Shown here in pieces: positions 4,283 through 46,652 of a stretch of 64,000 bases of DNA. The translations under genes were made by a program, and so were the position numbers. The notes beneath the pieces are model-generated. The model had not been told where the DNA came from, ran no database searches, and saw only the letters and a list, made by a program, of their open reading frames with translations. The stretch comes from Alphaproteobacteria bacterium (GTDB lineage: Bacteria; Pseudomonadota; Alphaproteobacteria; UBA8366), in NCBI GenBank assembly GCA_965228975.1, contig OZ245851.1, positions 53,940-117,939 of the forward strand, read 5' to 3'. Position 1 is the stretch's first letter; the number at the start of each line of letters is the position of its first letter.

Positions 4283-4356
4283 ATTGTCTTGCCTCTTCCC
4301 GACGCCGCCATGGCGCATTGTCCTCGCAGTGATATTTGGGAACAGGAACTTTCACC

Positions 4357-5373
4357 ATGAAATCCGTCATTTTCGGCGCAACCGTCTTGATAACGGCCCT
4401 GGCGAGCGCCGCGGAAGCGCGCGACCATCTGCACATCGTCAGCTCGCCCGGCGACTTCGTCTACACGTCGAAGGTCGCGGAGAGTTTTTCCCGCGAGTAT
4501 CGCCAGCCTGTACCGGTCGTCCGGAGCACCGGATCGCGAACGACGGTTCGAACATTCTGCGCCGGTATCGGCGTCGACCATCCCGACATCGTCAGCCTGC
4601 CGCGGCCCATGCAGCCCGCGGAGATCGACGAATGCCAGCGGAACGGGGTCAAGCGCATCACGCAGATCAAGGTCGGCTACGAAGCCGTCGTCCTCGCCCG
4701 CCAGCGCGGTGCGTTTCGCTTCGATGTGAACAAGGTGCATCTCTTCAAGGCCCTCGCCAAGGAAGTGCCCGTCCATGGTCGCATCGTGCCGAACCCGTAT
4801 AGGAAATGGAGCGAAATCGATCCGTTCCTGCCGCCGATCCCCATTCGCGTCATCGGCCCGCGAGACGGGACGGAAATCCGCCGGGCGTTCCTGAAGCTGG
4901 TCATGGACGAGGCTTGCCGGACCATGCCGGCGTTGACGGCCCTCGATGCGCCGCGCCGCGACAGGATTTGCACCACCTTTCGCAACGACGGCGCGTTTCG
5001 GGCGGTGTCGCGCGGCTATCAGGAAACCGTGCGGCTATTGGAGCGCGACTCCTCGCGGATCGCGATCATGCCGTTTTCCGTGTATCGGGAATGGGATGAA
5101 TCGCTGACGACCGTGCAGGTCGACAGCGTCCCGCCCAACCCGGTGACGGTTGCACAGAGCGAATATCCGATCATTTGCCCGGTTTTCCTCTACGTGAAGA
5201 CGCAGCATTTCAATCGGGTGCCGGGATTGTTGGAATTCGTCGTGGAATATACCAGCGATCACGCTTGGGGCCCGGACGGGTACCTGATCGAGGACGGTCT
5301 GATCCCGATGACCGAGCGGGATCGCCGGTGGCAGCGCGCCAACGCGATCGGCTTCACGCCGATGCGGCGTTAG
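4357..5373 (+). CDS. PstS-like (PBP type 2) periplasmic substrate-binding protein, orphan
   Basis: Signal peptide MKSVIFGATVLITALASAAEA. The overall pattern matches phosphate-binding-protein-like SBPs. No cognate permease or ATPase is adjacent. Confidence 0.65.
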   Translation: MKSVIFGATVLITALASAAEARDHLHIVSSPGDFVYTSKVAESFSREYRQPVPVVRSTGSRTTVRTFCAGIGVDHPDIVSLPRPMQPAEIDECQRNGVKRITQIKVGYEAVVLARQRGAFRFDVNKVHLFKALAKEVPVHGRIVPNPYRKWSEIDPFLPPIPIRVIGPRDGTEIRRAFLKLVMDEACRTMPALTALDAPRRDRICTTFRNDGAFRAVSRGYQETVRLLERDSSRIAIMPFSVYREWDESLTTVQVDSVPPNPVTVAQSEYPIICPVFLYVKTQHFNRVPGLLEFVVEYTSDHAWGPDGYLIEDGLIPMTERDRRWQRANAIGFTPMRR

Positions 5374-6584: not shown

Positions 6585-6941
6585 CGGTCTTCTCCTTTAC
6601 TTCTTTCGCACTCGGTGGAACGGAAAAGTTCCTAATGAATGAATAATCGAGGCAACCGGACGGAAACCGGCGGTCGGCCGTGGACCGTACGATCGCGGGG
6701 CCGTCTTCCGGCGGCGCGCGGGCGGGGGTTCCGGCCAAACCTGAAACCCGATGGGTCTCAGGCCGGTCCGGCGTGCCCGCCCGCGGTCCGCAGGGATCGG
6801 GACGCGCGAGCAGCGCGGTTCGAGGCGGCGTCGTGCCTGGCCTCGGCGCGGCGGGACAAACGTCCCGCCGATCCGAAACCTGGCTTCCGTCCGGCACCCC
6901 AGAAATCAATTTGGCTATAGATTCTGCTTTAAAGGCAGTTT

Positions 6942-7014
6942 CTGGATGGGAGGAATCGAACCTCCGACAGCTGAATCCTAAGTTCAGTGCTCTATCCAAC
7001 TGAGCTACATCATG
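6942..7014 (-). tRNA. tRNA-like gene with a class-I body and anticodon UAG; acceptor stem imperfect, so possibly a pseudo-tRNA
   Basis: Hand fold: D arm GCTC-AGTTGGATA-GAGC. Anticodon arm CTGAA-CTTAGGA-TTCAG. 5-nt variable loop CTGTC. T arm GGAGG-TTCGATT-CCTCC. Acceptor CATGATG/CATCCAG has 2 mismatches, no CCA is encoded, and the 5' end overlaps the CCA of the upstream tRNA. Confidence 0.45.
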
Positions 7015-7087
7015 GAGCCGATGACGGGACTCGAACCCGCGTCCTGCGGATTATGATCCGCTGCTCTACCAGCTGAGCTACATCGGC
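7013..7087 (-). tRNA. tRNA-Met-like gene (anticodon CAU) with encoded CCA; the anticodon loop appears 1 nt short
   Basis: Hand fold: acceptor GCCGATG/CATCGGC. D arm GCTC-AGCTGGTA-GAGC. Anticodon arm GCGGA-TCATAA-TCCGC. Variable loop AGGAC. T arm GCGGG-TTCGAGT-CCCGT. Ends TCCA. Total 75 nt. Confidence 0.6.
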
Positions 7088-9349: not shown

Positions 9350-10897
9350 TCAGGCGCGATACGGGAAAGAAGTCGGGCCGAGCAGGCCGGGTAGCAGCGG
9401 CTGTGTCCATTCGATCCAGCGGCACAGCATCGGACGGGTTTCGCGCGGGTCGATTAGGTCGTGCATCGAGAAGGACTCGGCGCGCGCGGCGGGTGACTGC
9501 TTACGGGCGAGCATTTCCTCCAGTTCCTGCCGCCGGGCCTCCGGGTCGGGGGCGGCGGCGATCTCGCGTCCGTAGGCGACCGCGACGCCGCCTTCGACCG
9601 GCAAGGCGCCCATTTCCGCCGACGGCCAGGCCAGGACATAGGCGTCGGGGCCGTAATGCGCCGCCTGCGCCACGCCGAATGATTTCCGCACCACCACCGA
9701 GGCCCAGGGCACCGAACAGTCGGCAACCGCAAGCACGGCGGCGGTGCCGTAACGGATCGTGCCTGCGCGTTCGGATTCGCTGCCGATCATGAAGCCCGGT
9801 TCGTCGACGAAGCTGACGATCGGCAAATGGAAGGTTTCGCAAATCTCGACGAAACGGCGCACCTTCATCGCGCCGTTCGCGCTCATCGCACCGGCGTAGT
9901 ACCGGCAGTCGTTGCCGATGACGCCGACGGGTTGGCCGTTCAGCCGGGCGAAGCCGGTGATCTGGCCGCGTCCGAAGGCGCGCGTCATCTCGAAGAAGCT
10001 GTCCCGGTCCACGATATGGGCAATGGTCTTGCGCATGTCGAAGACCTTGCGCCGGTCGCGCGGCACGATCCCGGCCAGTTCCTCGTCCTTTCGGTTCGGA
10101 TCGTCGTCCGGGGCGGCGACGGGCGGCAGTTCCCAGACGTTGGATGGCAGGTAGCTCAGAAAACGGCGGATTTGATCGAAGGCGTCCGCGTCGTCCTTGG
10201 CGACGTTGTCGGCCACGCTGTTGCGGCCATGGACCTGTGCGCCGCCCAGTTCCTCCTTGGTGACCTTCTCCCGCAGGGCGCGTTCGACAACCGCCGGTCC
10301 GGCGATGAGGATCTGTGCCGTTTCCTTGGTCATGACGGAAAAATGCGCCGCGACGAAACGCGAGGCGGGCAGCCCCGCGACCGGGCCGAGCGCGGCGGTC
10401 ACGACTGGCACGCTGGCCAGTGCGCGCGCCACGGAGCGAAACCGCGGCGGGGAATAGGGCGGCGTGCCGACCGTCTTGGACCCGGTCCCGGCGACGCTGC
10501 CGCCGCCGCCTTCGTGTAACCGGATCAGCGGCACCTTGTACTGACAGGCCAGTTCTTCGGCGTAGATGCTCTTGCGCAGACCGGCCTCGTTGGGCGATCC
10601 GCCACGCAAGGTGAAGTCCTCGCCGCCGATGATACAGCGGCGGCCATCGACCATGCCGAAGCCGAGCACGAAGTTCGCGGGAGAGAAGGAGTCGAGCGAG
10701 CCGTCGTCGTTCCTCTCGGCGGCCCCGGACGCGCCGCCCAGTTCGTCGAAACTGTCAGTGTCCAGCAGTCCATCGATCCGCTCGCGAACCGTCTGGCGGC
10801 CTTGCGCATGCTGCCGGGCCACGCCTTCCTCGCCGCCCAACTCCTTGGCGAGCGACCGCTTACGCTCGATGTCCTCGATTTCCTTGTCCCAACTCAT
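9350..10897 (-). CDS. acyl-CoA carboxylase carboxyltransferase (beta) subunit
   Basis: Carboxyl-transferase family pattern throughout (GGEDFTLRGGS..., GQPVGVIGNDCRYYAGA...). Start taken at ATG 10897 (MSWDKEIEDIE). Confidence 0.85.
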   Translation of the reverse strand: MSWDKEIEDIERKRSLAKELGGEEGVARQHAQGRQTVRERIDGLLDTDSFDELGGASGAAERNDDGSLDSFSPANFVLGFGMVDGRRCIIGGEDFTLRGGSPNEAGLRKSIYAEELACQYKVPLIRLHEGGGGSVAGTGSKTVGTPPYSPPRFRSVARALASVPVVTAALGPVAGLPASRFVAAHFSVMTKETAQILIAGPAVVERALREKVTKEELGGAQVHGRNSVADNVAKDDADAFDQIRRFLSYLPSNVWELPPVAAPDDDPNRKDEELAGIVPRDRRKVFDMRKTIAHIVDRDSFFEMTRAFGRGQITGFARLNGQPVGVIGNDCRYYAGAMSANGAMKVRRFVEICETFHLPIVSFVDEPGFMIGSESERAGTIRYGTAAVLAVADCSVPWASVVVRKSFGVAQAAHYGPDAYVLAWPSAEMGALPVEGGVAVAYGREIAAAPDPEARRQELEEMLARKQSPAARAESFSMHDLIDPRETRPMLCRWIEWTQPLLPGLLGPTSFPYRA

Positions 10898-11175
10898 ACG
10901 CGCTTCCTTAAGTCGAAAAATGACGCTTCCAAATGGCAATCCGGATTCTGCGCCCTAGTTATTTTGATCAGGGGATGAGTATCACGGTCGCGGCGACTTT
11001 CCGAATGTCCGGATTTTAGGCTGTTCGTTTGATCGATTACACGGACGAACCGGCGTGAGCGCAAGTTTGTCAGTAATCGACGCGATTGCCGAAGCGGCGC
11101 TTTGTGGCTGTCGCCACTGCTGTTATAGAGTCCCCCAATTGCCTTGCGGACGATCGACGAGGGAGAGTACCGACA

Positions 11176-12033
11176 ATGTTTAAACGATTTTTTGCTGCGC
11201 TGATCCTGGTGTTCGGGTTTGGGTCGGCGGTTGCGGCGGAGACGTTCGTCTTTACCGCCATACCCGATCAGGACGAGAGTCGCTTGAAAGAGCGTTTCGG
11301 AAAAATCGCGGACTATCTGTCCAAGGAATTGAACACGACCGTGAAATACGTGCCGGTGAAGAGCTATGCCGCCGCGGTTACGGCCTTCAAGAACAACCAG
11401 GTTCAGCTCGCGTGGTTCGGCGGCCTGTCGGGCGTGCGCGCAAGGGCTTCGGTGCCGGGGTCGGTGGCGATCGCGCAAGGATACGAGGACCAATTCTTCG
11501 AGACCTATTTCATCGCGAACGAGAAGGCCGGATTGGCGCTGTCCAAGGAATTCCCGAAAGAGATCGCTGGCAAGACCTTCACCTTCGGGTCCAAGGGGTC
11601 CACGTCGGGCCGCCTGATGCCCGAGTTCCATATCCGCCGGAACTTCGGCAAGGCACCCGAAAAGGTGTTCGAACGGGTGGGTTTCAGCGGCGATCACTCC
11701 CGGACGATCGCATTGGTGCAGTCCGGCGCGTATCAGGTCGGCGCGGTGAACTACAAGGTCTGGAAGAAGGAACTGGACGCCGGCAAGATCGATCCCAAGA
11801 AGGTCTCGATCATCTGGCGGACGCCGCCTTACCCCGACTATCAGTGGAGCATCCGCGGCGACGTGGATAAGAAATTCGGCGCGGGCTTCCAGAAGAAGGT
11901 GACGGGGGCTTTGCTGGGGATGAAGGATCCAGCGCTGCTCGAGTCCTTTCCGCGCAGCAAGTTCATTCCGGCGACCAACGACGACTACAAGATGATCGTG
12001 GATACCGGAAAGGAAATCGGTCTTATCGACTGA
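11176..12033 (+). CDS. PhnD-type ABC substrate-binding protein; putative selenium oxyanion (selenate/selenite) binding protein by selD linkage
   Basis: Signal peptide MFKRFFAALILVFGFGSAVAA. PhnD-like pattern (TFVFTAIPDQDESRL..., AWFGGLSG). GGGAGAG RBS before ATG 11176. It is the first gene of an operon that ends in the SelD fusion. Confidence 0.8.
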   Translation: MFKRFFAALILVFGFGSAVAAETFVFTAIPDQDESRLKERFGKIADYLSKELNTTVKYVPVKSYAAAVTAFKNNQVQLAWFGGLSGVRARASVPGSVAIAQGYEDQFFETYFIANEKAGLALSKEFPKEIAGKTFTFGSKGSTSGRLMPEFHIRRNFGKAPEKVFERVGFSGDHSRTIALVQSGAYQVGAVNYKVWKKELDAGKIDPKKVSIIWRTPPYPDYQWSIRGDVDKKFGAGFQKKVTGALLGMKDPALLESFPRSKFIPATNDDYKMIVDTGKEIGLID

Positions 12034-12689
12034 TGGCGCTTGTCGACCTCTCTCTCGCGACCGCGGGCTACAACGGCGCGAACGTCCTGCACGACGTGTC
12101 GTTGTCGATCGAGCGGGGCGAGAAGGTCGCATTGGTCGGCCGGAGCGGGGCGGGCAAGTCCACCCTGCTTCGGCTGATATACGAGCGTATCGATGGCGAG
12201 GCCGCGATGGTTCCGCAGGAACTCGGCCTCGTCCGCGCGCTCACCGTGTTCCACAACATCTACATGGGTCAGCTCAATCGCCACAGCACCTGGCGCAATG
12301 TGGTGAACTTGGTGCGGCCCATGCAGCAGGAAGTCGAGAATATCGGCGGCATCGTGAAGACGCTTGGCCTGGAGGACGAGTTGTTCTCCGCCGTCGGTGC
12401 GTTGTCCGGCGGCCAGCAGCAGCGGACGGCCGTGGGCCGGGCCTTGTATCAGCGGACCGACATTCTGCTCGGCGACGAACCGGTATCGGCGGTGGACGAG
12501 CATCAGTCCCGGGCGATCCTGGAAAGCATCGCCGACGCGAAGCCCACGGTGATCCTGGCGATGCATGATATCGATCTCGCGCTCGCCTATTCCGATCGGG
12601 TTATCGGGTTGGACGCCGGTCGCATCGTCATGGACGAGTCGACCGACGGTATGAAAGCCACCGACCTCGACTTCCTCTATCGAGGCTGA
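12033..12689 (+). CDS. ABC transporter ATP-binding protein (PhnC-like)
   Basis: Walker A GRSGAGKST, signature LSGGQQQR, Walker B ILLGDEP. TGATG overlap with the SBP gene. Confidence 0.9.
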   Translation: MALVDLSLATAGYNGANVLHDVSLSIERGEKVALVGRSGAGKSTLLRLIYERIDGEAAMVPQELGLVRALTVFHNIYMGQLNRHSTWRNVVNLVRPMQQEVENIGGIVKTLGLEDELFSAVGALSGGQQQRTAVGRALYQRTDILLGDEPVSAVDEHQSRAILESIADAKPTVILAMHDIDLALAYSDRVIGLDAGRIVMDESTDGMKATDLDFLYRG

Positions 12690-12694
12690 TCGGC

Positions 12695-14191
12695 ATGCAG
12701 GCGGTTTGGCGCTATTCTCCGGCGGTTCGGACCAGTCTGACTTTCGTCGGCATCGCTTTCCTGTGTTTGGTTTTCGCCGATATCTCGATCTCGACGGTAA
12801 ACCCGTGGACCGAGATGGGGCGTTTGCTGTTCGGCATCGTGACCCCGGATTTCCTGGCCACCGAAAGCCTGGTCAACGCCCTCGTGCAGACGATCGCCTT
12901 CGCAATCCTGGGCGTCGTCGTCGGGAATATCGCCGGGTTTTTCCTCGCGCTGATTTTTCACTATCGCGCCGTGCGCGTCGGTTGCGCATTCGTGCGCGCG
13001 ATCCATGAGCTGTTTTGGGCGCTGATCTTTCTGCAGGTTTTCGGCCTATCGCCGATCACCGGCATACTGGCCATCGGCATCCCCTATGCAGGGATCATCG
13101 CGAAGGTCTACGCCGAGATCATGGAAGAGGCCGACACCACGCCGCTCAAATCGGTGCCGCCGAACACGACCGCTACATCCGTTTTCATCTTTGTGCGCTT
13201 GCCGGACGTATGGGCGCATTTCAAGACCTACTCGCTCTACCGTCTCGAGTGCGGATTGCGGTCGAGCGCGGTGCTCGGCTTCGTCGGCCTGCCGACGTTG
13301 GGCTATTACCTCGAAACGGCGTTCCGCCAAGGGCATTATTCGGAAGTTTCCGCCCTGTTGATCATGTTCTACATCGTGATCGCGACCATGCGGGTATGGA
13401 TGCGCCGTAACTTGCTGCCGCTATACATCCTGGCCGCAATCCTGCTGCTGCCTTGGGGCGGCAACGAAATCTACGCCGACAACATCGTCCGGTTCTTCAC
13501 CCAGGACATCGTCCCGCAGCCGCTGCGCGACGGCGTGTTCGCCACGGGTGCGCTAACCGGGTTCGGCGAGTGGCTGTCGACGCTGTTCTTCGATCAGGCG
13601 CTGCCCGGCGCGATCGATACGCTGCAATTGACGATGATCGCACTGGTTGCGACCGGTGTCTTGTCGCTGATCTTTTTCCCGTTGTTGTCGCCGCTGTTCT
13701 TCGGCCGCGGCGGCCGGTTGGGCGGGCATGTGTTCCTGGTCGTCGTCCGGTCCACGCCGGAATACATTCTGGCGTATGTCTGCCTGCAGCTTTGGGGGCC
13801 GTCGATGCTGCCCGCGATCATCGCCTTGTCGCTGCATAACGGCGCGATCATTGCGCATCTGATCGGCCGCTATACGGAACACATGAAAGTTCGGGTCGAC
13901 GCGCCGCGCGGGCTCAATCTCTATTTCTACGAATCGGTGCCGCGCGTCTACGGGCAGCTCTTGGCGTTCCTGTTCTATCGCTGGGAAGTGATTTTACGTG
14001 AGACCGCAATTCTAGGCATGCTGGGTATCGCGACGCTCGGCTTCTATGTGGACAGCGCCTTTGCGGATATCCGGCTGGACCGCGCGTTGGTGCTGATATT
14101 GTTCACGGCCGGCCTGAATATTTGCGTCGATGCGTTGTCGCGGCACATCCGCGCGCGGCTGCGTCTCAAGACGACCATCGAACATGGGTGA
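12695..14191 (+). CDS. ABC transporter permease (PhnE-like, duplicated/fused)
   Basis: 498 aa, hydrophobic throughout, with two PhnE-like halves. Starts 5 nt after the ATPase gene. Confidence 0.85.
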   Translation: MQAVWRYSPAVRTSLTFVGIAFLCLVFADISISTVNPWTEMGRLLFGIVTPDFLATESLVNALVQTIAFAILGVVVGNIAGFFLALIFHYRAVRVGCAFVRAIHELFWALIFLQVFGLSPITGILAIGIPYAGIIAKVYAEIMEEADTTPLKSVPPNTTATSVFIFVRLPDVWAHFKTYSLYRLECGLRSSAVLGFVGLPTLGYYLETAFRQGHYSEVSALLIMFYIVIATMRVWMRRNLLPLYILAAILLLPWGGNEIYADNIVRFFTQDIVPQPLRDGVFATGALTGFGEWLSTLFFDQALPGAIDTLQLTMIALVATGVLSLIFFPLLSPLFFGRGGRLGGHVFLVVVRSTPEYILAYVCLQLWGPSMLPAIIALSLHNGAIIAHLIGRYTEHMKVRVDAPRGLNLYFYESVPRVYGQLLAFLFYRWEVILRETAILGMLGIATLGFYVDSAFADIRLDRALVLILFTAGLNICVDALSRHIRARLRLKTTIEHG

Positions 14192-14196
14192 TCCTC

Positions 14197-16461
14197 GTGC
14201 AATCGACCACACCGATCCTTAAAGACCTCGTTCTCGTCGGCGGCGGCCACAGTCATGTCGGCGTGCTCCGGTCCTTCGGCATGAAGCCGATACCGGGCGT
14301 GCGCCTGACGGTCCTTTGCCGCGACGTGGACACGCCCTATTCGGGGATGTTACCGGGGCTGGTGGCGGGGCATTACACTTTCGAGGAAACCCATATCGAT
14401 CTCGGTCCGCTGGCCCGCTTCGCCAATGCGCGTTTCTACAACGACGACGTGATCGGGATCGACCCGCGTCAGCGGTTGGTGTTGTGCAAGAACCGCCCGC
14501 CGGTGTCCTACGACTTGCTGTCCATCAACATCGGGTCCGCCCCGGCGACCTGGGAAACGCCGGGCGCCGAGGGCAATGTGGTGCCGGTCAAGCCGATCAA
14601 CCGGTTCGTCGCGCATTGGGAACGCCTGCGTGAACGCATCCTGCTGCGCGAGGACCCGGTGCGGATCGGCATCGTCGGCGGCGGCGCGGGCGGGGTGGAA
14701 TTGCTGCTCGCCATCCAATACCGGCTGAAGACCCTGTTGGCCGGCCAAGGGCGGACCGACGCGCATCTGGATTATCATCTGATCAGCGAAGAGTCGGATA
14801 TCCTGACCACGCATAACCCGCTGGTCCGGTCCAAGTTCCGGCGTATCTTCAATGAGCGCGGCATCAACTTTCACGCGGATACGCGCGTCGCGTCGGTCGC
14901 GCCCGGCAAGGTAATAGCCGCCGACGGCGAGAGCATCGCGTTGGATGAAATCCTCTGGGTGACCCGGGCCGGCGCCGCATCGTGGATCAAGGAGTCCGGA
15001 TTGGCGGTCGACGAGCACGGCTTCATGCAAGTCGGCGACACCCTGCAGTCGACGTCGCACCCCGAAATCTTCGGCGCGGGCGATATCGCGGCGATGGTCA
15101 ATCATCCGCGCCCGAAGGCGGGCGTCTTTGCCGTGCGTCAGGGCCCGCCGTTGACGCGAAACCTGCGGCGCATGCTGGTCGGCAAGTCCGCGCGACCGTT
15201 CAGGCCGCAGCGCGAGTTCCTCAGCCTGATCAGCACGGGGGACAAATATGCGGTTGCCTCGCGTTCCAAATGGTCGGTAGAGGGCAAGCTGGTCTGGCGT
15301 TGGAAGGACTGGATCGACCGGCGTTTCATGCGCAAGTTCAGCGAGCTCCCGGAAATGGACACGGAGGAGAAGTCCGATCTGCCGCGTGGTCTGGCGGGCG
15401 AGGAGGTGATCAAGGAAATCTCCGCGGTCGCCATGCGCTGCGGCGGCTGTGGCGCCAAAGTCGGTGCGACGGTGTTGCAGCGGGCCTTGTCGCAGTTGGA
15501 GCCGGTGACGCGCGATGACGTTTTGATCGGATTACACGAACCGGACGATGCTGCGGTGGTCGAAGTGCCGCCGGGCAAGGTGATGGTGCATACGGTCGAT
15601 TCGTTCCGCGCCATTGTCGACGACCCGTATCTTTTCGGCCGCATCGCCGCCAATCACAGCCTCGGCGATATCTACGCGATGGGCGCCGATCCGCAGACCG
15701 CGCTGGCAATCGCCACAGTGCCCTACGGGCTGGAGGAGAAGGTCGAGGACGTATTGTCCCAAATGCTGACCGGCGCAATGGAGGTCTTGCGGGAATCGAA
15801 CACGTCGCTGGTCGGTGGCCACACCAGCGAAGGCGCGGAGCTATCGCTTGGTTTTTCCGTTAACGGCCTGATCGACCGCGAGAAGGTGTTGCGCAAGGGC
15901 GGCATGCAGCCGGGCGACCGGCTGGTGCTGACGAAGGCGATCGGAACCGGCACATTGTTCGCTGCCGACATGCGCCTGAAAGCGAAAGGGCAGTGGATCA
16001 AGGACGCCCTCGCCTCGATGGTGCTGTCGAACTACAAGGGCGCGCAATGCCTGTCCGACCACGGCGCGAATGCGTGCACCGACGTCACCGGCTTCGGGTT
16101 GTTGGGACATTTGGTAGAGATGACCAAACCGTCGGGCGTCGACGTGGAATTGGACCTCGGCGCCATCCCGTATCTCGATGGCGCGCAGGAAACAGTGGCG
16201 GCCGGCATTACCAGCACCTTGCAGCCGCAGAACCTGCGGCTCCGACGTGCCATATCCAATATTGCCGCGGTCGGCGAGGATCCGCGCTTTCCGTTGATCT
16301 TCGATCCGCAGACCGCCGGCGGTTTGCTGGCCAGCGTGCCGCAGGAGCGGGCCGAGGATTGCGTCGGCGCATTGCGTGATTTGGGATATGACCGGACGGC
16401 GATCATCGGCACCGTATTGCCCGAGGGGAACCAACTCGAACCGATTACGGTGCGTGCGTAA
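14197..16461 (+). CDS. senC: bifunctional FAD/NAD(P)-binding pyridine-nucleotide-disulfide oxidoreductase-like domain fused to selenide, water dikinase (SelD; SenC-like)
   Basis: The N-terminal part has two Rossmann motifs (LVLVGGGHSHVG; IGIVGGGAGGVE). From about 15400 it is SelD: AMRCGGCGAKVG (Cys-type active site), DDPYLFGRIAANHSLGDIYAMGA, DVTGFGLLGHL, FDPQTAGGLL. Start is GTG 14197 or 14188, directly after the permease stop; the upstream part of the track ORF overlaps the permease and is rejected. Confidence 0.85.
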   Translation: MQSTTPILKDLVLVGGGHSHVGVLRSFGMKPIPGVRLTVLCRDVDTPYSGMLPGLVAGHYTFEETHIDLGPLARFANARFYNDDVIGIDPRQRLVLCKNRPPVSYDLLSINIGSAPATWETPGAEGNVVPVKPINRFVAHWERLRERILLREDPVRIGIVGGGAGGVELLLAIQYRLKTLLAGQGRTDAHLDYHLISEESDILTTHNPLVRSKFRRIFNERGINFHADTRVASVAPGKVIAADGESIALDEILWVTRAGAASWIKESGLAVDEHGFMQVGDTLQSTSHPEIFGAGDIAAMVNHPRPKAGVFAVRQGPPLTRNLRRMLVGKSARPFRPQREFLSLISTGDKYAVASRSKWSVEGKLVWRWKDWIDRRFMRKFSELPEMDTEEKSDLPRGLAGEEVIKEISAVAMRCGGCGAKVGATVLQRALSQLEPVTRDDVLIGLHEPDDAAVVEVPPGKVMVHTVDSFRAIVDDPYLFGRIAANHSLGDIYAMGADPQTALAIATVPYGLEEKVEDVLSQMLTGAMEVLRESNTSLVGGHTSEGAELSLGFSVNGLIDREKVLRKGGMQPGDRLVLTKAIGTGTLFAADMRLKAKGQWIKDALASMVLSNYKGAQCLSDHGANACTDVTGFGLLGHLVEMTKPSGVDVELDLGAIPYLDGAQETVAAGITSTLQPQNLRLRRAISNIAAVGEDPRFPLIFDPQTAGGLLASVPQERAEDCVGALRDLGYDRTAIIGTVLPEGNQLEPITVRA

Positions 16462-16465
16462 TGTT

Positions 16466-17431
16466 CTATGTGAGCGCGGCGAGGAGCGACCGCCATGCGG
16501 CTTCTTCGTGCTGCGGCTTGAACAGGTGGGCGCGTTCGCGGCATTGGCGCGTCAACGTCTTTAGATAATCGCGGTCGTGCTCGATCCGGTCCAGGCAGGC
16601 CGCAAGCGCAGCCGTGTCGCCGACCGGGAAGTAACCGGCATAATCTTCGCCCAACAGTCCGATCGATCCCGATATGTCCGACGCGATCACCGGGACGTCG
16701 GCGGCAACCGCTTCCGAAACCACATTTGCGCCGCCTTCCATGATCGAACTCAGCACCATCGCGTGGGACGAATCGAAAAGCCGACGCACCTGCCATCCCG
16801 GCGCCTCGCCGCGCCAGTCGTATCTTGGGTTGGTGCTCATCTCACGGCGCGCGCGCTCGGCCCAGCTTTCGTCATGGGCTTTGCCCAGATGCACGATGCG
16901 GATACGGGAATCGTCCGGCAGCAACCGCGCGGCTTCGGCGGCGCGTAGGGGGTCCTTCTCCTCGCGCAGGTGGCCGATGACACAGATGTCCACAGTGCGC
17001 CGCGACGGGCGGCGCGTCCGGTTGAGCGGCAAGGCGGATTGGTGGATGACATGCAATTTGCCATGGAACCGGTCCGGGATGTCCCGATGCACCAATCCGT
17101 GCAGACACACCAGCGCGTCGGCGATGTCCATCGAGTGATAGGTCTCGTCCGGATGGCTCTGCTGGAACTTGTTGATATCGGTTCCCGCCAGCAAGACGAT
17201 CAACGGGCGGTCCGGATACCGTTCGCGGAAGCGGAGGATCGACTTCGCGCTGCGCCAGGCATGCACGGCGATCATCGCGTCGACCGGCTCGTTCTCATAC
17301 TCCGTCGCGATGATGGCCTCATGACCGAGGCGGCGCAGGATGTCCTGCCATCGCACCGCCGTCGTTCGGTTGCCGTTGCGCGATTGTTTGCCTGCGGGCG
17401 TGATAAGGCTAATCTTCAAGCCGTTTCGCAT
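16466..17431 (-). CDS. senB: SenB-like selenosugar synthase (selD-associated glycosyltransferase family)
   Basis: Starts MRNGLKISLITPAGKQSRNGNRTTAVRWQDILRRLGH and contains ...EGGANVVSEAVAADVPVIAS, matching my memory of the selD-linked GT family later named SenB. Start taken at ATG 17431. Confidence 0.7.
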   Translation of the reverse strand: MRNGLKISLITPAGKQSRNGNRTTAVRWQDILRRLGHEAIIATEYENEPVDAMIAVHAWRSAKSILRFRERYPDRPLIVLLAGTDINKFQQSHPDETYHSMDIADALVCLHGLVHRDIPDRFHGKLHVIHQSALPLNRTRRPSRRTVDICVIGHLREEKDPLRAAEAARLLPDDSRIRIVHLGKAHDESWAERARREMSTNPRYDWRGEAPGWQVRRLFDSSHAMVLSSIMEGGANVVSEAVAADVPVIASDISGSIGLLGEDYAGYFPVGDTAALAACLDRIEHDRDYLKTLTRQCRERAHLFKPQHEEAAWRSLLAALT

Positions 17432-17445
17432 TAGATGGTTTGCCC

Positions 17446-18759
17446 ATGACTGAACCCGTCCCCACGTCCCGCTTGATCGACATGATGACAAGCGCGCGGC
17501 GTCGCACGTTGGAAATGGTCCAAGGGTTGACCCCCGACCAGCTCGTTGGCCCCAAGCTGCCGACGTTGAATCCGTTGATTTGGGAAATCGGTCATGTCGG
17601 CTGGTTCTATGAAAACTTCATCCTGCGCCGATTGTACAATCAAGAACCGATGCTCGCGACAGGAGATGCACTTTATGACTCCATCGCGATCGCGCATGAA
17701 ACGCGGTGGGATTTGCCGGTCCTGCCGCTGAACGAAATCCTCGCCTACATGCAGGATGTGCAGGATGCGTTGGTCGACCGTCTCGGCGGCAAGGAGATGG
17801 CGGACGAACGGCACAGCTATCTGTACCAGTTCACAGTCTTTCACGAAGACATGCACACAGAGGCTTTTACCTGGGCGCGGCAGACATTGGCATACCCGAC
17901 GCCGGTCTTCGAGGGCGGTCCGGTTGGTCGGCGGGCACCGGAGACCGGGCCGCTGTCCGGCGACGTGGTGATCATGGGCGGTACGTACCGGATGGGCGCT
18001 GAAAAAAATGCACCCTTTCTATTCGACAATGAAAAATGGGCGCGCCCGGTGACCGTTGCGCCGTTCAAGATGGCGCGGGCGGCGGTCACGAATGGCGAAT
18101 TCGCCGAATTCGTCGCGGACGGCGGATATCAGACGGAATCGCATTGGGACGCGGACGGCTGGGCCTGGCGGCAAGAAGCCGCTGCCGAACACCCGGTCTA
18201 TTGGGTTCCGGACGAGAATGGCGGGTGGGGCGTCCGGCGGTTCGATCGCGTGTTCGAACTGCCGCTCCATCAGCCGGTCATCCACGTCTGCTGGCACGAG
18301 GCCAACGCCTACTGCCGTTGGGCCGGCCGGCGATTGCCGACCGAGGCGGAATGGGAGTTGGCGGCGACGACGGTACCGGAAACGACCGACGGCGTTTTGC
18401 AGAAGCGCCGGTACCCTTGGGGCGACGAGGAGCCGACGCCGGACCACGCAAACCTCGACGGCTTTGCATTGGGTTGTGTCGATGTCGCGGCGCATCCGGC
18501 GGGTGACAGCGCCTATGGTTGCCGGCAGATGATCGGCAATGTCTGGGAGTGGACGCAGGACGTCTTCAAGCCGTTTCCCGGGTTCGCGCCGGACGACTAC
18601 AAGGAATACTCGCAGCCGCTGTTCGATTCGACGCGCGTGCTACGGGGCGGCGCGTGGACCACGCGGGGGCGAATGATCACGTCGCTGTACCGCAATTATT
18701 TCGGTCCGGACCGGCGCGATGTGTTCGCCGGGTTCCGGACCTGTGCCTTGTCCGCCTAA
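17446..18759 (+). CDS. senA: SenA-like C-Se bond-forming non-heme iron enzyme (DinB_2 + FGE-sulfatase fold, EgtB/OvoA superfamily)
   Basis: NPLIWEIGHVGWFYENF and FHEDMHTEAF supply the DinB-type His ligands. The FGE-sulfatase-like C-terminal half contains GGTYRMG, HVCWHEANAYCRWAGRRLPTEAEWE and RVLRGGAW. Adjacent to the SenB-like and SelD genes. Confidence 0.75.
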   Translation: MTEPVPTSRLIDMMTSARRRTLEMVQGLTPDQLVGPKLPTLNPLIWEIGHVGWFYENFILRRLYNQEPMLATGDALYDSIAIAHETRWDLPVLPLNEILAYMQDVQDALVDRLGGKEMADERHSYLYQFTVFHEDMHTEAFTWARQTLAYPTPVFEGGPVGRRAPETGPLSGDVVIMGGTYRMGAEKNAPFLFDNEKWARPVTVAPFKMARAAVTNGEFAEFVADGGYQTESHWDADGWAWRQEAAAEHPVYWVPDENGGWGVRRFDRVFELPLHQPVIHVCWHEANAYCRWAGRRLPTEAEWELAATTVPETTDGVLQKRRYPWGDEEPTPDHANLDGFALGCVDVAAHPAGDSAYGCRQMIGNVWEWTQDVFKPFPGFAPDDYKEYSQPLFDSTRVLRGGAWTTRGRMITSLYRNYFGPDRRDVFAGFRTCALSA

Positions 18760-20921
18760 CCCGCGTCGCGTTTCACGATCAGGGCGTCGACGATCGACAC
18801 GCCTTCGCCGGCCGGGTGGACGAGCACCGGATTCAGGTCGATCTCCGCGATGATGTCCGCGTGATCGGCGGCGAGTTGCGAAAGTTTCACGATCAGGTCG
18901 AGCAGTGCGTCGAGGTCGGCGGGGGCGCCGCCGCGCACCCCATCCAGGATCTTCCGGCCTTTCAGCCGGTCCAATACCTGTGCCGCCGCGTCGGTGGTCA
19001 ACGGCACCGGAGAGAAGGCGACGTCGCGCAGCACTTCGACATGGATGCCGCCGAGCCCGACCATCAGCATCGGGCCGAAGGCGTCATCACGATTGATCCC
19101 GAGGATGATTTCCTGACCGCGCTTCGCCATCGGCTGTACCAGCACACCGTGAATGTCCGGATTGCCGCTACCGGTTTTCTTGTGATAGGCGGTGGCGTTC
19201 TTGGTAAGGGTTGAGAAAGCTTCTTGGACGGTCGCCGCATCGTCCAAGCCGAGCGCGACCGCACCGGCATCGGTTTTGTGCAATACGTCCGGCGATTGGA
19301 CCTTGAGGGCGACCGGACCGCCGATTTCGTCGAGCGCTTCCAGGGCTTCGTCCGGCGTTTTCGCCAAACGGCCGTCCGGCACGGAAATGCCGTAGGCGGC
19401 GAGAACGGGCATGGCCTGATACTCGCACAGGACGGGACCTGCATCGGCAAGCAGGGGAACGGCCGTTTCCTTGATCTTTGCAGACGTGGTCGTGATCTCC
19501 GGCGTCTTCAGGAATCGGTCGCGGAACGCACGGTAATCGGCCATCGTCGCCATCGTGCGGGCGCAGTTCCGCATGTTGGTGTAGAGCGGGTAGCCCGCGC
19601 GGTTCAGCAGCTCCATCGCCGTGCCGCGGTTCAGTGTGTAGCTGCAGAACAGGATCGGCTTCTCGCACTCTTCGGCGACCTTTCGCAGGTTTTCCTCTTC
19701 CCGCTCGTAGCCGGCGGCGTTGCGAGCCGACGTCACCACGATCACCGAATCCACTTCAGGGGATTGCGCGACCATTCCCGCGAAGTTGCCGTAGCCGACC
19801 ACGCGGATTGCCTGTGCGGTGCCGTCCACCGGATTCTGCGACGTGCCGTAGGGCGGCAGGTATTCGTCGATGACCGCGCGGGTTGCGGCGTCCAACGGCG
19901 GCACCACGAGGCCGGCCGCTTCGCAGCTGTCGGCCATCCATCCGCCGCCGCCGCCCGATCCGGTGGCGATTCCGACCCGCTTGCCCAGCGGCAGTTTGTT
20001 GCGGTAGCGCGAGAACCCGGCGGCGACGTCGACGATATCCTCGATATCGTAGCCTTCGATCACGCCGTACCGGTCGAACATCGCCTTATAGGCCGTGTAG
20101 GCGCCGGTCATGGCCGCCGTGTGCGAGGCGGCGGCGCGTTGCCCGGCTTCCGACCGGCCGATCTTGGTCAGGATGATCGGCTTACCGGCGCGCAGCGCCT
20201 TCTCGGCGATGGGGGCGAAGCGTTCCGGATTCTTGATGTCCTCCATGAACATCAGGATCACCTCGGTCTTGCCGTCGTCGAGCATGTAGTCGACGAAATC
20301 CAGTCCCGAGAGGCAGGCTTCGTTGCCGGTGGTCATCACGTAGCTGAACGGCAATTCCTTCGGCCGGCCCCGGTCGTAAAAGGAGAAACCGATGCCGCCG
20401 CTTTGCGCCGTAACGCCGATATATCCGTCGGACCGGTGCGGCGGCACGAGCGGCAGGTCGGGATTATCCACCGTCGCGCTGAACGTGGCGCAGAGCGGGG
20501 CCAGCATGTTGGCGAAGCCTTCGGAATTGGGGCCGCCGACCGCGAGGTCGTATTTCTCGGCGATTGCCCGAATTTCGTCCTGCAGAACGTCGCCCGCTTC
20601 GCCGGCTTCTTCCGCGAACCCGGAACTGATGATCATTGCGGCGCGCACGCCGGCTTCGCCGCAGTCGGTCAATGCCTCCGCGACATTCTCCGCCGGGATC
20701 ACAAGCACCGCGAGATCGACGCGTTCGGGGATGTCGGCGATCGTCCGGTAGGCCTTCAGGCCGTTGATCTCGTCGTTGCTGCGGCTGACGGGATAAATAT
20801 TGCCGGGGAATTCGTGACAGCCGAGGACATGCATGATGCGGCCGCGAATGATGTGCGCGTTCGGCGAGGCGCCGATGACCGCTACGGATTTCGGGGACAG
20901 AAGCGCGGAGATGTCGGGCAT
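18756..20921 (-). CDS. ADP-forming acyl-CoA synthetase (acetate--CoA ligase family); order is CoA-binding then ATP-grasp
   Basis: N-terminal SVAVIGASPN CoA-binding Rossmann fold. C-terminal ATP-grasp (GPVALKVQSPDVLHKTDAGAVALGL). Start at ATG 20921. Confidence 0.85.
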   Translation of the reverse strand: MPDISALLSPKSVAVIGASPNAHIIRGRIMHVLGCHEFPGNIYPVSRSNDEINGLKAYRTIADIPERVDLAVLVIPAENVAEALTDCGEAGVRAAMIISSGFAEEAGEAGDVLQDEIRAIAEKYDLAVGGPNSEGFANMLAPLCATFSATVDNPDLPLVPPHRSDGYIGVTAQSGGIGFSFYDRGRPKELPFSYVMTTGNEACLSGLDFVDYMLDDGKTEVILMFMEDIKNPERFAPIAEKALRAGKPIILTKIGRSEAGQRAAASHTAAMTGAYTAYKAMFDRYGVIEGYDIEDIVDVAAGFSRYRNKLPLGKRVGIATGSGGGGGWMADSCEAAGLVVPPLDAATRAVIDEYLPPYGTSQNPVDGTAQAIRVVGYGNFAGMVAQSPEVDSVIVVTSARNAAGYEREEENLRKVAEECEKPILFCSYTLNRGTAMELLNRAGYPLYTNMRNCARTMATMADYRAFRDRFLKTPEITTTSAKIKETAVPLLADAGPVLCEYQAMPVLAAYGISVPDGRLAKTPDEALEALDEIGGPVALKVQSPDVLHKTDAGAVALGLDDAATVQEAFSTLTKNATAYHKKTGSGNPDIHGVLVQPMAKRGQEIILGINRDDAFGPMLMVGLGGIHVEVLRDVAFSPVPLTTDAAAQVLDRLKGRKILDGVRGGAPADLDALLDLIVKLSQLAADHADIIAEIDLNPVLVHPAGEGVSIVDALIVKRDAG

Positions 20922-20982
20922 GATGTCGGGTGTCCTGTCTGGACCTCTTGTTGTTCGGACGATAGCGGCCGGTGCTAGTGAA

Positions 20983-22143
20983 TCAGCGCAGCCCCAGGCC
21001 ACGGGCGATGATGCCGCGCAGGATTTCCCGCGTGCCGCCCTGTATGGTGAGTTTGGGTGCGATCAGTGTCGCGAAGCGCATCAGCTCGTCGAAATCAGCA
21101 CGGTTGCTGGGATCGGATTGTGCAAATGCCGACAGCTCGCGTGCCTTCGCCGGCAGCGTTTGTTCCCAGTTCGTGCCGAGATCCTTGACAACCGACCCTT
21201 CGAGCACCGGCTCCTTCCCCGCCGCGAGCATGCCGTTCACCGAAATCGACATGCGGCGCAATGTATGAAGCTGCGCGACCAGGCGGCCGATGCCTTCGGC
21301 CCCGCGCACGTCCGGTTCCTTTCCGAGCACGTTGACCAGTTCCGGCAGGATGTAAATCGTCTCGAGGAATCGTTCCGGCCCGCTCCGTTCGTAGGCGAGT
21401 TCGCTGGTCGCCTGTTTCCAGGCGGAGTCGATCTCCCCCAGAACCGCGTTTTCCGGCAGTATCGCATCCTCGAAGATGACTTCGTTGAATTCGTGGTTGC
21501 CGGTCAAGTGCAGGAGCGGACGCACCGTGATGCCCGGCGTGCTCATATCCACCAGGAACTGCGTCAGGCCGTGCCGGCGGTTGTCCTCGGTCGCCGGCGA
21601 TGTGCGGAACAGGCCGATCATGTAGTGCGAGCGATGCGCGTTGCTGGTCCAGACCTTGCGGCCGTTGATGCGCCAGCCGTCGGCGGTCTTCTCCGCCTTC
21701 GTCTTGGCGGCGAACAGGTCGGAGCCGGAATCCGGCTCGCTCATGCCGATGCAGAAATAGCATTCGCCGCGGGTGATGCGCGGCACGATGTCCTGCTTGA
21801 CCTCTTCCGGCGCGTATTTCAGCAGCATCGGGCCGCTTTGCCGGTCGGCGGTGAAATGCGCCCGGGTCGGCGCGCCGGCGACCCGGAATTCTTCGGTCAC
21901 CACGTAGCGTTCCAGGAAGCTGCGCTCGTGGCCGCCATACTCCTTGGGCCACGTCAGGCCGATCCATCCGCGTTCGCCGACTTTCCGGCTGAATTCGGGA
22001 TTGAATCCTTTGCCGAGATGCGCGGTTTGCGGATCGAAGGTGCCGGCGGCGATTTCATCCTTGAGAAAGGCGCGGACTTCCTTGCGAAGCGCCTCGGCTT
22101 CGGGCGGGAGGCGGATCGGGTCGAATTCGATTGTGCTCGACAT
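20983..22143 (-). CDS. acyl-CoA dehydrogenase
   Basis: ACAD pattern (GWIGLTWPKEYGG, CIGMSEPDSGSDL, GGTREILRGIIAR). Start at ATG 22143 (MSSTIEFDP). Confidence 0.9.
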   Translation of the reverse strand: MSSTIEFDPIRLPPEAEALRKEVRAFLKDEIAAGTFDPQTAHLGKGFNPEFSRKVGERGWIGLTWPKEYGGHERSFLERYVVTEEFRVAGAPTRAHFTADRQSGPMLLKYAPEEVKQDIVPRITRGECYFCIGMSEPDSGSDLFAAKTKAEKTADGWRINGRKVWTSNAHRSHYMIGLFRTSPATEDNRRHGLTQFLVDMSTPGITVRPLLHLTGNHEFNEVIFEDAILPENAVLGEIDSAWKQATSELAYERSGPERFLETIYILPELVNVLGKEPDVRGAEGIGRLVAQLHTLRRMSISVNGMLAAGKEPVLEGSVVKDLGTNWEQTLPAKARELSAFAQSDPSNRADFDELMRFATLIAPKLTIQGGTREILRGIIARGLGLR

Positions 22144-39146: not shown

Positions 39147-39296
39147 ACATCGCCGTCGAGATTCGCCCTGTCATGGGGCAATGTGTATTATCCCGCCCGG
39201 CACCGGCCAACCGTTTAGGTGCCGTCCCGCCAGCGGGCGGCCCGTGCATTGGGCACGCCTCGGCATCCAACAACCCCACAGTTAGAAGAAGAAAGA

Positions 39297-45424: not shown

Positions 45425-46621
45425 TTAAGCCGTCAACGCGCGCGCCAAATCCTCCTTGAGGTCCTCGACATCCTCCAGCCCGACCGACAGGCGCAGTAAG
45501 CCCTCGGAAATGCCCAGGCGTTCGCGTTCCTCTTCCGGCAGGCGTTGGTGGGTCGTTGTCGCCGGATGGGTGACGATGCTTTTCGTATCGCCGAGGTTGT
45601 TGGAGATGTCGATGATCTCGAGCGTGTTTTGGATTCGGTAGGCACGCTCCTTGCCGCCCTCGATCTCGAAGGCGAGCACGGAGCCGGGCTTCTTCATCTG
45701 CCATTTCGCCAGCGTGTATTGCGGATGGCTTTCCAGGCCCGGGTACAAAACGCGCTGCACGCCGGGTTGCGTCTCCAGGAATTCGGCGACCTCCTGCGCG
45801 TTTTGGCAATGCCGTTCCACCCGCAGGTCCAGCGTCTCCAACCCTTTGAGCAACAGCCAGGCGTTGAACGGGCTGCAGGCAGGGCCGGTGTGGCGGATGA
45901 GCGGTTGCAGGTTGTCTTCGTAGTAGCTCTGCGGACCCAGGATCGCACCGCCGAGCGCGCGGCCTTGCCCGTCGATATGCTTGGTCGCGGAGTAGACGAT
46001 GATGTCCGCGCCGAAATCCAATGGATGCTGCAGTACCGGCGTCGCCAGTACGTTGTCGACCACCAGCTTGCCGCCCGCCGCGTGGGTCAACTCGGCGATC
46101 TTGCCGAGGTCGATGATCTCCAGCGTCGGGTTGGACGGGGTTTCGAGGAAGACGCAGTCGGCCGGCTTGGAAAGTGCTTTCTCCCACTGGTCCATGTCCG
46201 TGCCGTCGACGAATTCCGTTTCCACGCCGTAGCGTGGCAGCAACTCGGCGATGATGTAGTGGCAGGAGCCGAACAAGGCCCGCGAGGCGACGACCCGGTC
46301 GCCCGCCTTCAATAGGGCGATCAGCGATGTGAACACCGCCGACATGCCGCTTGCCGTGGCGGTGCAGAACTCCGCGCCCTCCAGCAGGCGCAGCCGTTCT
46401 TCGAAGGCCGCGACCGTCGGGTTGCCGTAGCGGGAGTAGATGAACCGGTCGGTCTCGCCCTTGAAGGCGGCCTCGGCGTCCTCCGCCCGGTCGTAGACGA
46501 AGCCCGAGGTCAGGAACAGCGCCTCCGCCGTCTCCCGGTGCGGGGATCGATCTAGCCCGCCGCGCACGAGATTTGTTTGCGGCCGGTAGGTCCGTTTGGA
46601 TGACTGCTGCGATCCGTCCAT
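45425..46621 (-). CDS. metZ: O-succinylhomoserine sulfhydrylase (Cys/Met-metabolism PLP enzyme)
   Basis: YRPQTNLVRGG...FIYSRYGNPTV...SATKHIDGQG (PLP-binding Lys). Start at ATG 46621 with an AGGAGGA RBS. Confidence 0.8.
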   Translation of the reverse strand: MDGSQQSSKRTYRPQTNLVRGGLDRSPHRETAEALFLTSGFVYDRAEDAEAAFKGETDRFIYSRYGNPTVAAFEERLRLLEGAEFCTATASGMSAVFTSLIALLKAGDRVVASRALFGSCHYIIAELLPRYGVETEFVDGTDMDQWEKALSKPADCVFLETPSNPTLEIIDLGKIAELTHAAGGKLVVDNVLATPVLQHPLDFGADIIVYSATKHIDGQGRALGGAILGPQSYYEDNLQPLIRHTGPACSPFNAWLLLKGLETLDLRVERHCQNAQEVAEFLETQPGVQRVLYPGLESHPQYTLAKWQMKKPGSVLAFEIEGGKERAYRIQNTLEIIDISNNLGDTKSIVTHPATTTHQRLPEEERERLGISEGLLRLSVGLEDVEDLKEDLARALTA

Positions 46622-46652
46622 TGCGTCCTCCTGCGCCGCATCCGGCGCCATG

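Follow-up and report, generated by a model that had tools for sequence, protein, structure and literature searches.

Which solute does an importer of the phosphonate-transporter type bring into the cell when its genes are coupled to selD? The question is raised by a 64-kb stretch of DNA (64,000 nucleotides (nt); hereafter, the window) from a member of the alphaproteobacterial lineage UBA8366 (GenBank assembly GCA_965228975.1, contig OZ245851.1, positions 53,940 to 117,939), in which three transporter genes at 11176-14191 run directly into a gene with a SelD domain. Bacteria that use selenium have to find it at nanomolar concentrations, where sulfate and phosphate are in vast excess, and we know of no dedicated high-affinity importer of this type for selenium that has been proven biochemically. 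We consider it probable that the three genes encode a substrate-binding protein (SBP)-dependent ATP-binding cassette (ABC) importer of a selenium oxyanion, most likely hydrogen selenite (HSeO3-), rather than of a phosphonate, phosphite or selenate; for the SBP of the window, we infer the identity of the substrate from genomic context and from the pockets of homologous proteins. A transporter of this kind has already been predicted, both in a curated library of hidden Markov models and by Kayrouz et al. 2022 (bioRxiv 10.1101/2022.04.13.486033).

The transporter genes and their selenoneine neighbours

The features of the locus are as follows (window coordinates).

10940-11175, + strand: leader of 236 nt, intergenic, with a divergent carboxyltransferase gene on one side and the SBP gene on the other
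11176-12033, + strand: SBP gene (285 amino acids (aa)), TIGR04553/PhnD1-type family, with a Sec-type signal peptide
12033-12689, + strand: ABC ATPase gene (218 aa), ABC_tran domain with canonical motifs
12695-14191, + strand: fused double PhnE-like permease gene (498 aa), matching TIGR01097 in two stretches
14197-16461, + strand: reductase-SelD fusion gene (754 aa), matching TIGR03169 and TIGR00476
16466-17432, - strand: senB, selenosugar synthase (a glycosyltransferase), matching TIGR04348
17446-18759, + strand: senA, selenoneine synthase, EgtB-like, matching NF041186, with DinB_2 and FGE-sulfatase domains

The signal peptide of the SBP reads MFKRFFAALILVFGFGSAVA up to the cleavage point and AE after it, and the protein matches the Pfam domain Phosphonate-bd with E 2.6e-61. 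Against the NCBIfam model TIGR04553, named 'putative selenate ABC transporter substrate-binding protein', it scores 382.1 bits (cutoff 250, E 1.2e-114), with residues 23-285 aligned to model positions 1-266; this model is of the hypoth_equivalog type, that is, the function in its name is a context-based hypothesis. The score against the PhnD equivalog, at 127.9 bits, falls below the cutoff of 261.1. The ATPase contains all the expected motifs (Walker A GRSGAGKST, signature LSGGQQQR, Walker B ILLGDEP and H-loop MHD), matches ABC_tran with E 4e-23, and is nearest among NCBIfam families to PhnC, again below the cutoff (163.9 bits against 266.1). It is a short protein, with ~24 residues fewer than the PhnC model between Walker A and the Q-loop (56-217 against model positions 80-243), and its Synechococcus counterparts are longer (246-253 aa against 218 aa). 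The permease matches TIGR01097 (PhnE) in two stretches with 200.4 bits, below the cutoff of 216.7, and its halves align with each other (29% identity, E 9e-13), which identifies it as a fused double permease.

The N-terminal part of the fusion protein (~14197-15340) is an FAD/NAD(P)H-dependent pyridine-nucleotide-disulfide oxidoreductase (PNDR) domain of the NDH-2/SQR-like type, which scores 503 bits against TIGR03169 ('Nterm_to_SelD', cutoff 310) and has its nearest solved structures in NDH-2 (9PXK, 4NWZ) and SQR (3HYV). The C-terminal part (~15430-16461) is SelD (TIGR00476, 306.5 bits, cutoff 125), and its glycine-rich loop, R-C-G-G-C-G-A-K at about 15439-15459, contains both the catalytic Cys and the Lys; the match to TIGR04369 ('fusion_not_SelD') stays below the cutoff (478 bits against 700). 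The NDH-like domain has been proposed to produce the substrate of SelD (Zhang et al. 2008, PMC2432076). Such fusions are characteristic of marine bacteria; in surface-ocean metagenomes, they account for nearly half of the Cys-type SelDs (Zhang and Gladyshev 2008, PMC2398784).

The senABC cluster was defined in Variovorax paradoxus by Kayrouz et al. 2022 (bioRxiv 10.1101/2022.04.13.486033), who showed for the Variovorax enzymes that SenC makes selenophosphate, SenB makes a selenosugar and SenA performs the coupling to hercynine; the selenoneine producers in that study were given selenite, and a 'putative selenate transporter' was noted beside many sen clusters, a subset of the total. In the window, SenB scores 413.5 bits against TIGR04348 (cutoff 300) and SenA 483 bits against NF041186 (cutoff 420), and senA, senB and the selD homologue are co-localised within 14197-18759. 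The SelD of the fusion takes the part of SenC here, and, as far as the family assignments go, SenA, SenB and the fusion are predicted to form a complete senABC selenoneine cluster with an importer of its own. Uptake, reduction and activation, and selenoneine synthesis would be encoded side by side in textbook-clean form. The 64-kb window contains no homologue of EgtD, which would supply hercynine and may be encoded in another part of the genome, and no selU, selA/B or tRNA-Sec, so that use of selenium in selenocysteine or selenouridine is not tied to this locus.

Reading of the sequence from 10800 to 16600 shows how closely the genes are joined. The SBP gene starts with ATG at 11176, behind a Shine-Dalgarno-like GGGAGAG motif, and ends with TGA at 12031-12033; the ATPase gene starts with ATG at 12033-12035, so that TGATG forms a 1-nt overlap. 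The TGA of the ATPase gene (12687-12689) is separated by 5 nt from the permease ATG at 12695, and the permease TGA (14189-14191) by another 5 nt from the GTG at 14197, the most plausible start of the fusion gene. A first-pass annotation of this DNA had described the TGATG overlap and the 5-nt gaps leading to the SelD fusion, and all of these particulars proved correct. Its description of the transporter as hard-wired to selD agrees with this coupling but overlooked senB and senA directly downstream. Its further statement that the window carries no phosphonate catabolic gene is upheld by a scan of the ~52 open reading frames (ORFs) across the 64 kb against Pfam and NCBIfam, in which no C-P lyase, PhnX/W, PhnY/Z or PtxD was detected.

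Within the four-gene unit, no promoter-like or terminator-like site exceeds shuffle expectation. The 236-nt leader contains no match to the sigma-70 consensus, no other promoter or terminator site above shuffle expectation, no riboswitch or other RNA family in Rfam at E<=1, and only short repeats at chance level; the operon promoter presumably lies within it. The close spacing of the four genes suggests that uptake and activation are expressed in step, which would keep free selenide low. At the other end of the locus, the convergent stop codons of the fusion gene and senB (16459-16468) are 4 nt apart, and the divergent start codons of senB and senA (17430-17448; ATG 17432 and ATG 17446) are 13 nt apart. 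Canonical terminators or promoters would not fit into these gaps at the ends of senB, implying overlapping or antisense transcription. Similarly close convergence of SelD and senB genes is seen at the related loci L012, L013, L015, L023, L027 and L036.

Selenium genes around related transporters

A comparison set was drawn from a scan of one genome per species, from which we took the 80 loci with the most similar SBPs (63-98% identity). These loci, the majority of them in marine Alpha- and Gammaproteobacteria and some in Poribacteria, SAR324, Nitrospinaceae and Holophagae, were searched with the window proteins, neighbouring ORFs were clustered, and recurrent clusters were named. Cultured carriers in the scan include Zhongshania antarctica DSM 25701, Marinobacterium litorale DSM 23545, Tamilnaduibacter salinus DSM 28688 and Marinobacter nauticus. 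The permease again follows the SBP and ATPase genes as a single fused protein of 498-509 aa at 69 of the 80 loci, as it does in Synechococcus. A selenium gene (selD, selU, senA/senB) lies within 10 kb of the transporter at 44 loci (55%), and the proportion is similar among loci with full 10-kb flanks (29 of 49). The PNDR-SelD fusion is encoded at 27 of the 80 loci, at 18 of them directly 3' of the permease gene, and a free SelD at 10. SenA or SenB is found at 23 loci and EgtD at 7. SelU/MnmH, the tRNA 2-selenouridine synthase (505 bits), occurs at 13 loci and is always encoded directly upstream of the SBP.

These genes are combined in at least six different orders across Alpha- and Gammaproteobacteria. 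The order seen in the window (SBP-ATPase-permease-fusion, with senB convergent to it and senA beyond) is joined by selU-SBP-ATPase-permease-fusion in Zhongshania and Oleiphilaceae, by selD-selU-SBP-ATPase-permease in Marinobacterium and its relatives, by an arrangement in which the fusion gene, egtD and senA precede senB-SBP-ATPase-permease on the other strand, and by fusion-SBP-ATPase-permease. The association with two independent traits of selenium use, in more than one architecture, argues for a transporter that provides selenium to SelD generally and not to one pathway; by the same gene-order comparison, importers of the window type are predicted to serve the selenouridine trait in other bacteria as well.

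The same data bear on a different reading, namely, that the locus encodes a phosphorus transporter, for phosphite or, with medium affinity, for phosphate, as proposed for the PhnD1 proteins of picocyanobacteria, and that the adjacency to selD has nothing to do with the substrate. Under this reading, genes for phosphorus metabolism would be the natural neighbours, but no ptxD, C-P lyase, phnX/W, phnY/Z or pho-regulon gene is present in the window or recurs beside the 80 loci. A single-copy gene would be expected within 10 kb by chance at well under 1% of loci (a rough estimate), compared to the 55% seen for selenium genes, and linkage to two different selenium pathways in many gene orders is likewise hard to reconcile with unrelated adjacency. 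What speaks for a phosphorus substrate comes from the binding data, to which we turn below.

A few of the related loci also encode putative molybdenum proteins near the transporter and sen genes, locus L024 among them, with a similar picture at 5 loci. A ~1000-aa protein (L024, 5971-8979) resembles molybdopterin oxidoreductases of the pyrogallol-hydroxytransferase type, an assignment based on Pfam counts of neighbouring ORFs (Molybdopterin in 3, AhtL-like in 2), and a ~780-aa protein of the same locus (17515-19848) by inspection resembles the molybdenum subunit of the xanthine-dehydrogenase family, a family that includes selenium-dependent molybdenum hydroxylases. Such proteins recur in a few metagenome-assembled genomes (MAGs) of Rhodospirillales, probably as inherited synteny.

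The binding pocket and its ligand

By sequence, the nearest solved structures to the SBP are 7S6G (E 2e-68) and 5LQ5 (E 1e-57), and its AlphaFold model (predicted local distance difference test score, pLDDT, 91) has its best fold matches in 7S6G, 5LQ8 and 5LQ5. All of these are picocyanobacterial PhnD1 proteins, from Synechococcus MITS9220 (7S6G, also 7ZCK) and Prochlorococcus MIT9301 (5LQ5/5LQ8), and both proteins are themselves above the TIGR04553 cutoff of 250, with 334 and 297 bits, respectively; the NCBI name of the Synechococcus CC9311 orthologue is 'putative selenate ABC transporter substrate-binding protein'. The PhnD1 pocket, as seen in 7S6G and 5LQ5, consists of a Tyr, an S-T-S loop, a His, an Asp that acts as hydrogen-bond acceptor, a Phe where PtxB has Tyr, and a capping Tyr held in place by an Asp and an Asn (PMC5700983, PMC10284923). 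The contacts of Pm_PhnD (Y46, S126-T127-S128, H158, D205, Y206, D13, N176 and F90) correspond to Y64, S142-T143-S144, H174, D221, Y222, D31, N192 and F108 in the window SBP. Together with S85, these ligand residues are kept relative to PhnD1 and are invariant in 81/81 proteobacterial sequences.

Two further positions distinguish the proteobacterial clade. K140 is invariant (81/81), at selenium-linked and unlinked loci alike, and stands in place of a Glu in picocyanobacterial PhnD1; position 176 holds R or K in 79/81 SBPs (R176 in the window) and Ala in PhnD1. The two residues, encoded at about 11593-11595 and about 11701-11703, flank the S-T-S and His ligand motifs.

The chemistry of the candidate ligands can be compared with this pocket. 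Selenous acid has a pKa2 of ~8.3, and plenty of HSeO3- is present at pH 7-8; this mono-anion is a pyramid with three oxygens, and its lone pair takes the place of the phosphite H. Phosphite, with a pKa2 of 6.7, is mostly di-anionic at pH 8. Selenate, like sulfate, is a tetrahedron of four oxygens that has lost all its protons. The Asp carboxylate of Pm_PhnD implies that the ligand is bound as a protonated mono-anion, pH 8 included, and for steric reasons the Tyr cap requires any fourth substituent to be very small; phosphate is bound ~3,500-fold more weakly than phosphite (Bisson et al., PMC5700983). In 7S6G, sulfate was ruled out of the site by anomalous scattering (Shah et al., PMC10284923). 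With an Asp that calls for a protonated oxygen and a Tyr cap that acts against a fourth one, HSeO3- would fit the conserved pocket better than SeO4 2-.

Selenate is a major dissolved selenium species in oxic water. An importer of SeO4 2- would agree with the curated name of TIGR04553, in which the substrate is 'putative selenate'; the fused reductase domain, together with cellular systems, would then reduce Se(VI) to selenide. The context evidence for a role in selenium metabolism applies equally to this reading, and the wider fold includes a binder of tetrahedral oxyanions, ArrX (arsenate or sulfate). We nevertheless regard selenate as a quite improbable substrate. D221 needs a protonated oxygen on the ligand, selenate carries no proton at physiological pH, the Y222 cap disfavours a fourth oxygen, and the ORF family scans revealed no dedicated selenate reductase within the window. 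Phosphate, the tetrahedral relative of phosphite, is bound by PhnD1 10- to 3,500-fold more weakly, and sulfate is excluded crystallographically (PMC5700983, PMC10284923). On this analysis, the word 'selenate' in the family name is unlikely to be right and appears not to be backed by pocket chemistry.

The proposal of the first-pass annotation, a PhnDCE-type importer of selenate or selenite tied to selD, is thus strongly supported in its selenium part, by the context at 44 of the 80 loci, whereas the pocket argues against selenate. The annotation was also not aware of biochemical proof for such transporters. This holds for selenium, but the PhnD1 members of TIGR04553 have both structures and measured affinities, and the tight phosphite binding that made up one half of its stated counter-evidence (the other half being no affinity for selenium oxyanions) is found in these homologues (0.05-4 µM; PMC5700983, PMC10284923).

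These measurements make phosphorus the main rival to selenium, because they cover the only ligands determined for the family (phosphite with a Kd of 0.05-4 µM, phosphate with 7-180 µM). For Pm_PhnD, Kd values of 51 nM for phosphite, 182 µM for phosphate and 109 µM for methylphosphonate have been reported (Bisson et al. 2017, PMC5700983), and four Synechococcus PhnD1 proteins bind phosphite at 0.7-4 µM and phosphate at 7-88 µM (Shah et al. 2023, PMC10284923). All PhnD1 ligand contacts are kept in the window SBP, the picocyanobacterial operons have no selenium neighbours, and a constitutive phosphate role has been argued by Shah et al. (PMC10284923). The physiology of the cyanobacteria points elsewhere. 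Every one of the 97 picocyanobacterial genomes in the Cyanorak database contains the phnD1C1E1 operon, the operon is not induced by phosphorus starvation, and strains with PhnD1 only cannot grow on phosphite (PMC5700983, PMC10284923). The in vivo role of PhnD1 was left unresolved by both Bisson et al. (PMC5700983) and Shah et al., who called it 'paradoxical' (PMC10284923). The same cyanobacteria, Prochlorococcus and Synechococcus, encode a SelD extended at its N-terminus by an NADH-dehydrogenase-like part, as well as ybbB/selU (Romero et al. 2005, PMC1273633). Taken with the gene neighbourhoods, these observations make a phosphorus substrate with incidental selD adjacency unlikely, in our assessment.

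Selenium compounds seem to be missing from the PhnD1 work. The string 'selen' is absent from the main texts of Bisson et al. 2017 (PMC5700983) and Shah et al. 2023 (PMC10284923), and the ligand lists of Shah et al. that were consulted include no selenium, arsenic or molybdenum compound (PMC10284923). Our literature search returned no paper linking phnD with selenite, no record of PhnD1 tried with selenium oxyanions, and no experimental paper on TIGR04553 or a selenate ABC transporter. As far as we found, the literatures on selenium genomics and on PhnD1 do not cite each other, and the link between PhnD1 and TIGR04553 is new here.

Another small anion, such as arsenite, tellurite, sulfite or thiosulfate, or a range of oxyanions taken up by a broad-specificity scavenger, would find a parallel in the recruitment of the Phosphonate-bd fold for arsenite (AioX) and arsenate (ArrX), and the invariant K140 and the R/K176 of the proteobacterial clade do differ from PhnD1. 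The neighbourhoods of the related loci nonetheless show no arsenic or sulfur-oxidation genes, the specific and repeated linkage being to SelD, SelU and Sen. In differential scanning fluorimetry screens of PhnD1 with many sulfur, carbon and nitrogen compounds, only phosphorus compounds gave shifts (PMC10284923). We consider this group of substrates very improbable. Selenoneine and hercynine were also considered as substrates and rejected, the PhnD1-type pocket being a small buried anion site that excludes 2-aminoethylphosphonate (PMC5700983).

Several points weigh against hydrogen selenite as the ligand. Se-O bonds are ~0.2 Å longer than P-O bonds. The affinity of Pm_PhnD falls ~2000-fold when the pocket expands for a methyl group (PMC5700983), and for these two reasons selenite may be a poor fit. 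The measured ligands of homologues are phosphite (in the nM-µM range), phosphate and methylphosphonate only (PMC5700983, PMC10284923), and the literature search found no measurement of binding or transport with a selenium compound for any member of TIGR04553. The AlphaFold model of the SBP is in the open conformation and does not provide the pocket geometry that would discriminate Se-O from P-O. The second-shell residues K140 and R/K176, which replace the Glu and Ala of PhnD1, may reflect a tuning of specificity. As to context, the 80 loci are the closest relatives and not a random sample, gene order among them is partly inherited, and 36 of them have no selenium gene within 10 kb. In favour of selenium, the SBPs of these 36 loci are 66-93% identical to selenium-linked ones, with all ligand residues invariant, and Pfam searches of their 124 nearest neighbours revealed no recurrent phosphorus-utilisation family. 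A last point against selenite is that the PhnD1 loci of marine Synechococcus have no SelD or other selenium gene within 10 kb, and the selenium link in cyanobacteria consequently rests on family membership and published genome-level co-occurrence, not on synteny.

If hydrogen selenite is the substrate, the following route would apply. The secreted SBP would capture HSeO3- in a small buried pocket in the periplasm, as the homologous crystal structures suggest, and the fused permease with an ATPase dimer would drive its import into the cytoplasm at the expense of ATP, as expected from their family membership. Cellular thiols and the NDH-2-like flavoprotein domain may jointly reduce Se(IV) to selenide, a role of this domain long proposed in the literature. 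The SelD domain would then convert selenide and ATP to selenophosphate, a family-level activity that has been shown for Variovorax SenC, and SenB would form the selenosugar that SenA couples to hercynine to give selenoneine, as shown for the Variovorax orthologues.

More tentatively, the whole TIGR04553 family, including PhnD1C1E1 of picocyanobacteria, might be a dedicated high-affinity importer of hydrogen selenite, with the nanomolar phosphite affinity, a puzzle in cells unable to use phosphite, being a case of molecular mimicry in which HPO3H- resembles HSeO3-; this is a possibility that we take seriously while leaning slightly against it. Transporter, NDH-like-SelD fusion and selU form a trio that has been reported at the genome level in picocyanobacteria and is physically clustered in Zhongshania. 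If the proposal holds, picocyanobacteria would use the transporter to supply the NDH-like-SelD fusion and SelU in making tRNA selenouridine, and the one in the window would feed selenoneine synthesis. Should selenite prove to be the true ligand, a major marine route of biological selenium uptake would have been identified, the constitutive nature of PhnD1 and its occurrence in every sequenced picocyanobacterium would be explained, the database name could be corrected, and an uptake module would be available for the engineering of selenoneine production. Purification, crystallisation conditions and assays for PhnD1 are already published.

The rest of the window and comparison with known systems

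Elsewhere in the window, a gene at 4336-5373 (+) encodes an orphan PBP_like_2 binding protein of the PstS superfamily, with no adjacent pstCAB; we rejected it as evidence of a phosphorus context, its PstS match being very weak (43 bits against a cutoff of 206). Two tRNA genes lie ~1 nt apart at 6941-7087 (-). The upstream one has the anticodon CAT (mis-parsed by ARAGORN as '???'), and the downstream one, 74 nt long with the anticodon TAG (Leu), lacks the long variable arm usual in a bacterial tRNA-Leu; at an 88.7%-identical MAG locus (L001, 5790-5934 (-)), the upstream partner is called as tRNA-Val(CAC). A SAM_alpha riboswitch (46688-46767 (-), 58.6 bits) is located directly upstream of a gene for a pyridoxal phosphate (PLP)-dependent enzyme of Cys/Met metabolism (45425-46651 (-)), and 61887-63970 (-) holds a cystathionine beta-synthase-like gene (PALP and CBS domains) and a second Cys_Met_Meta_PP gene. 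Two paralogous proteins resembling ADP-forming acyl-CoA synthetases, encoded at 18756-21002 (-) and 39219-41462 (+), have permuted domain orders (CoA_binding, Succ_CoA_lig, ATP-grasp_5 in one arrangement and ATP-grasp_5, CoA_binding, Succ_CoA_lig in the other).

Among known systems, the E. coli phosphonate transporter PhnCDE, which works with C-P lyase, shows distant homology to the window transporter in all three components. The window proteins nevertheless all fall below the PhnD, PhnC and PhnE cutoffs, the permease is duplicated and fused, and no phnF-P genes are present in the window; the pocket of E. coli PhnD is also much larger than that of the PhnD1 type (PMC5700983). PtxB (5O2J, 5JVB, 5LV1), the binding protein of the phosphite transporter PtxABC, has the same fold as the window SBP, along with the S-T-S motif, the His and a Tyr that caps a small buried pocket, but is only 25-28% identical to it and has Tyr (Tyr100) and Gln in place of F108 and D221, respectively. 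PtxABC is encoded with ptxD, whereas the window contains no ptxD or other gene for a 2-hydroxyacid dehydrogenase.

The arsenite-binding AioX and the arsenate-binding ArrX use the same Phosphonate-bd fold for a non-phosphorus group-15 oxyanion and thus provide a precedent for re-targeting of this fold. They are ~16% identical to the window SBP and function as sensors of two-component systems, not as transporter subunits.

Much nearer is picocyanobacterial PhnD1, which is 40-45% identical to the window SBP, with all ligand contacts identical. The PhnD1C1E1 operon has the same architecture as the window transporter (SBP, ATPase and a fused permease of 509 aa), although the cassette of marine Synechococcus is flanked by genes for an aminotransferase and a GDSL lipase, unlike the window cassette with its selD. 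With the TIGR04553 family at large, the window shares the cassette of SBP, ATPase and fused permease beside selD, as in many members, and we see no structural difference. The senABC cluster of Variovorax paradoxus likewise combines adjacent SenA and SenB equivalogs with a SelD; the window differs in that its SelD forms one protein with an NDH-2-like reductase and is transcribed together with the transporter genes instead of with senAB.

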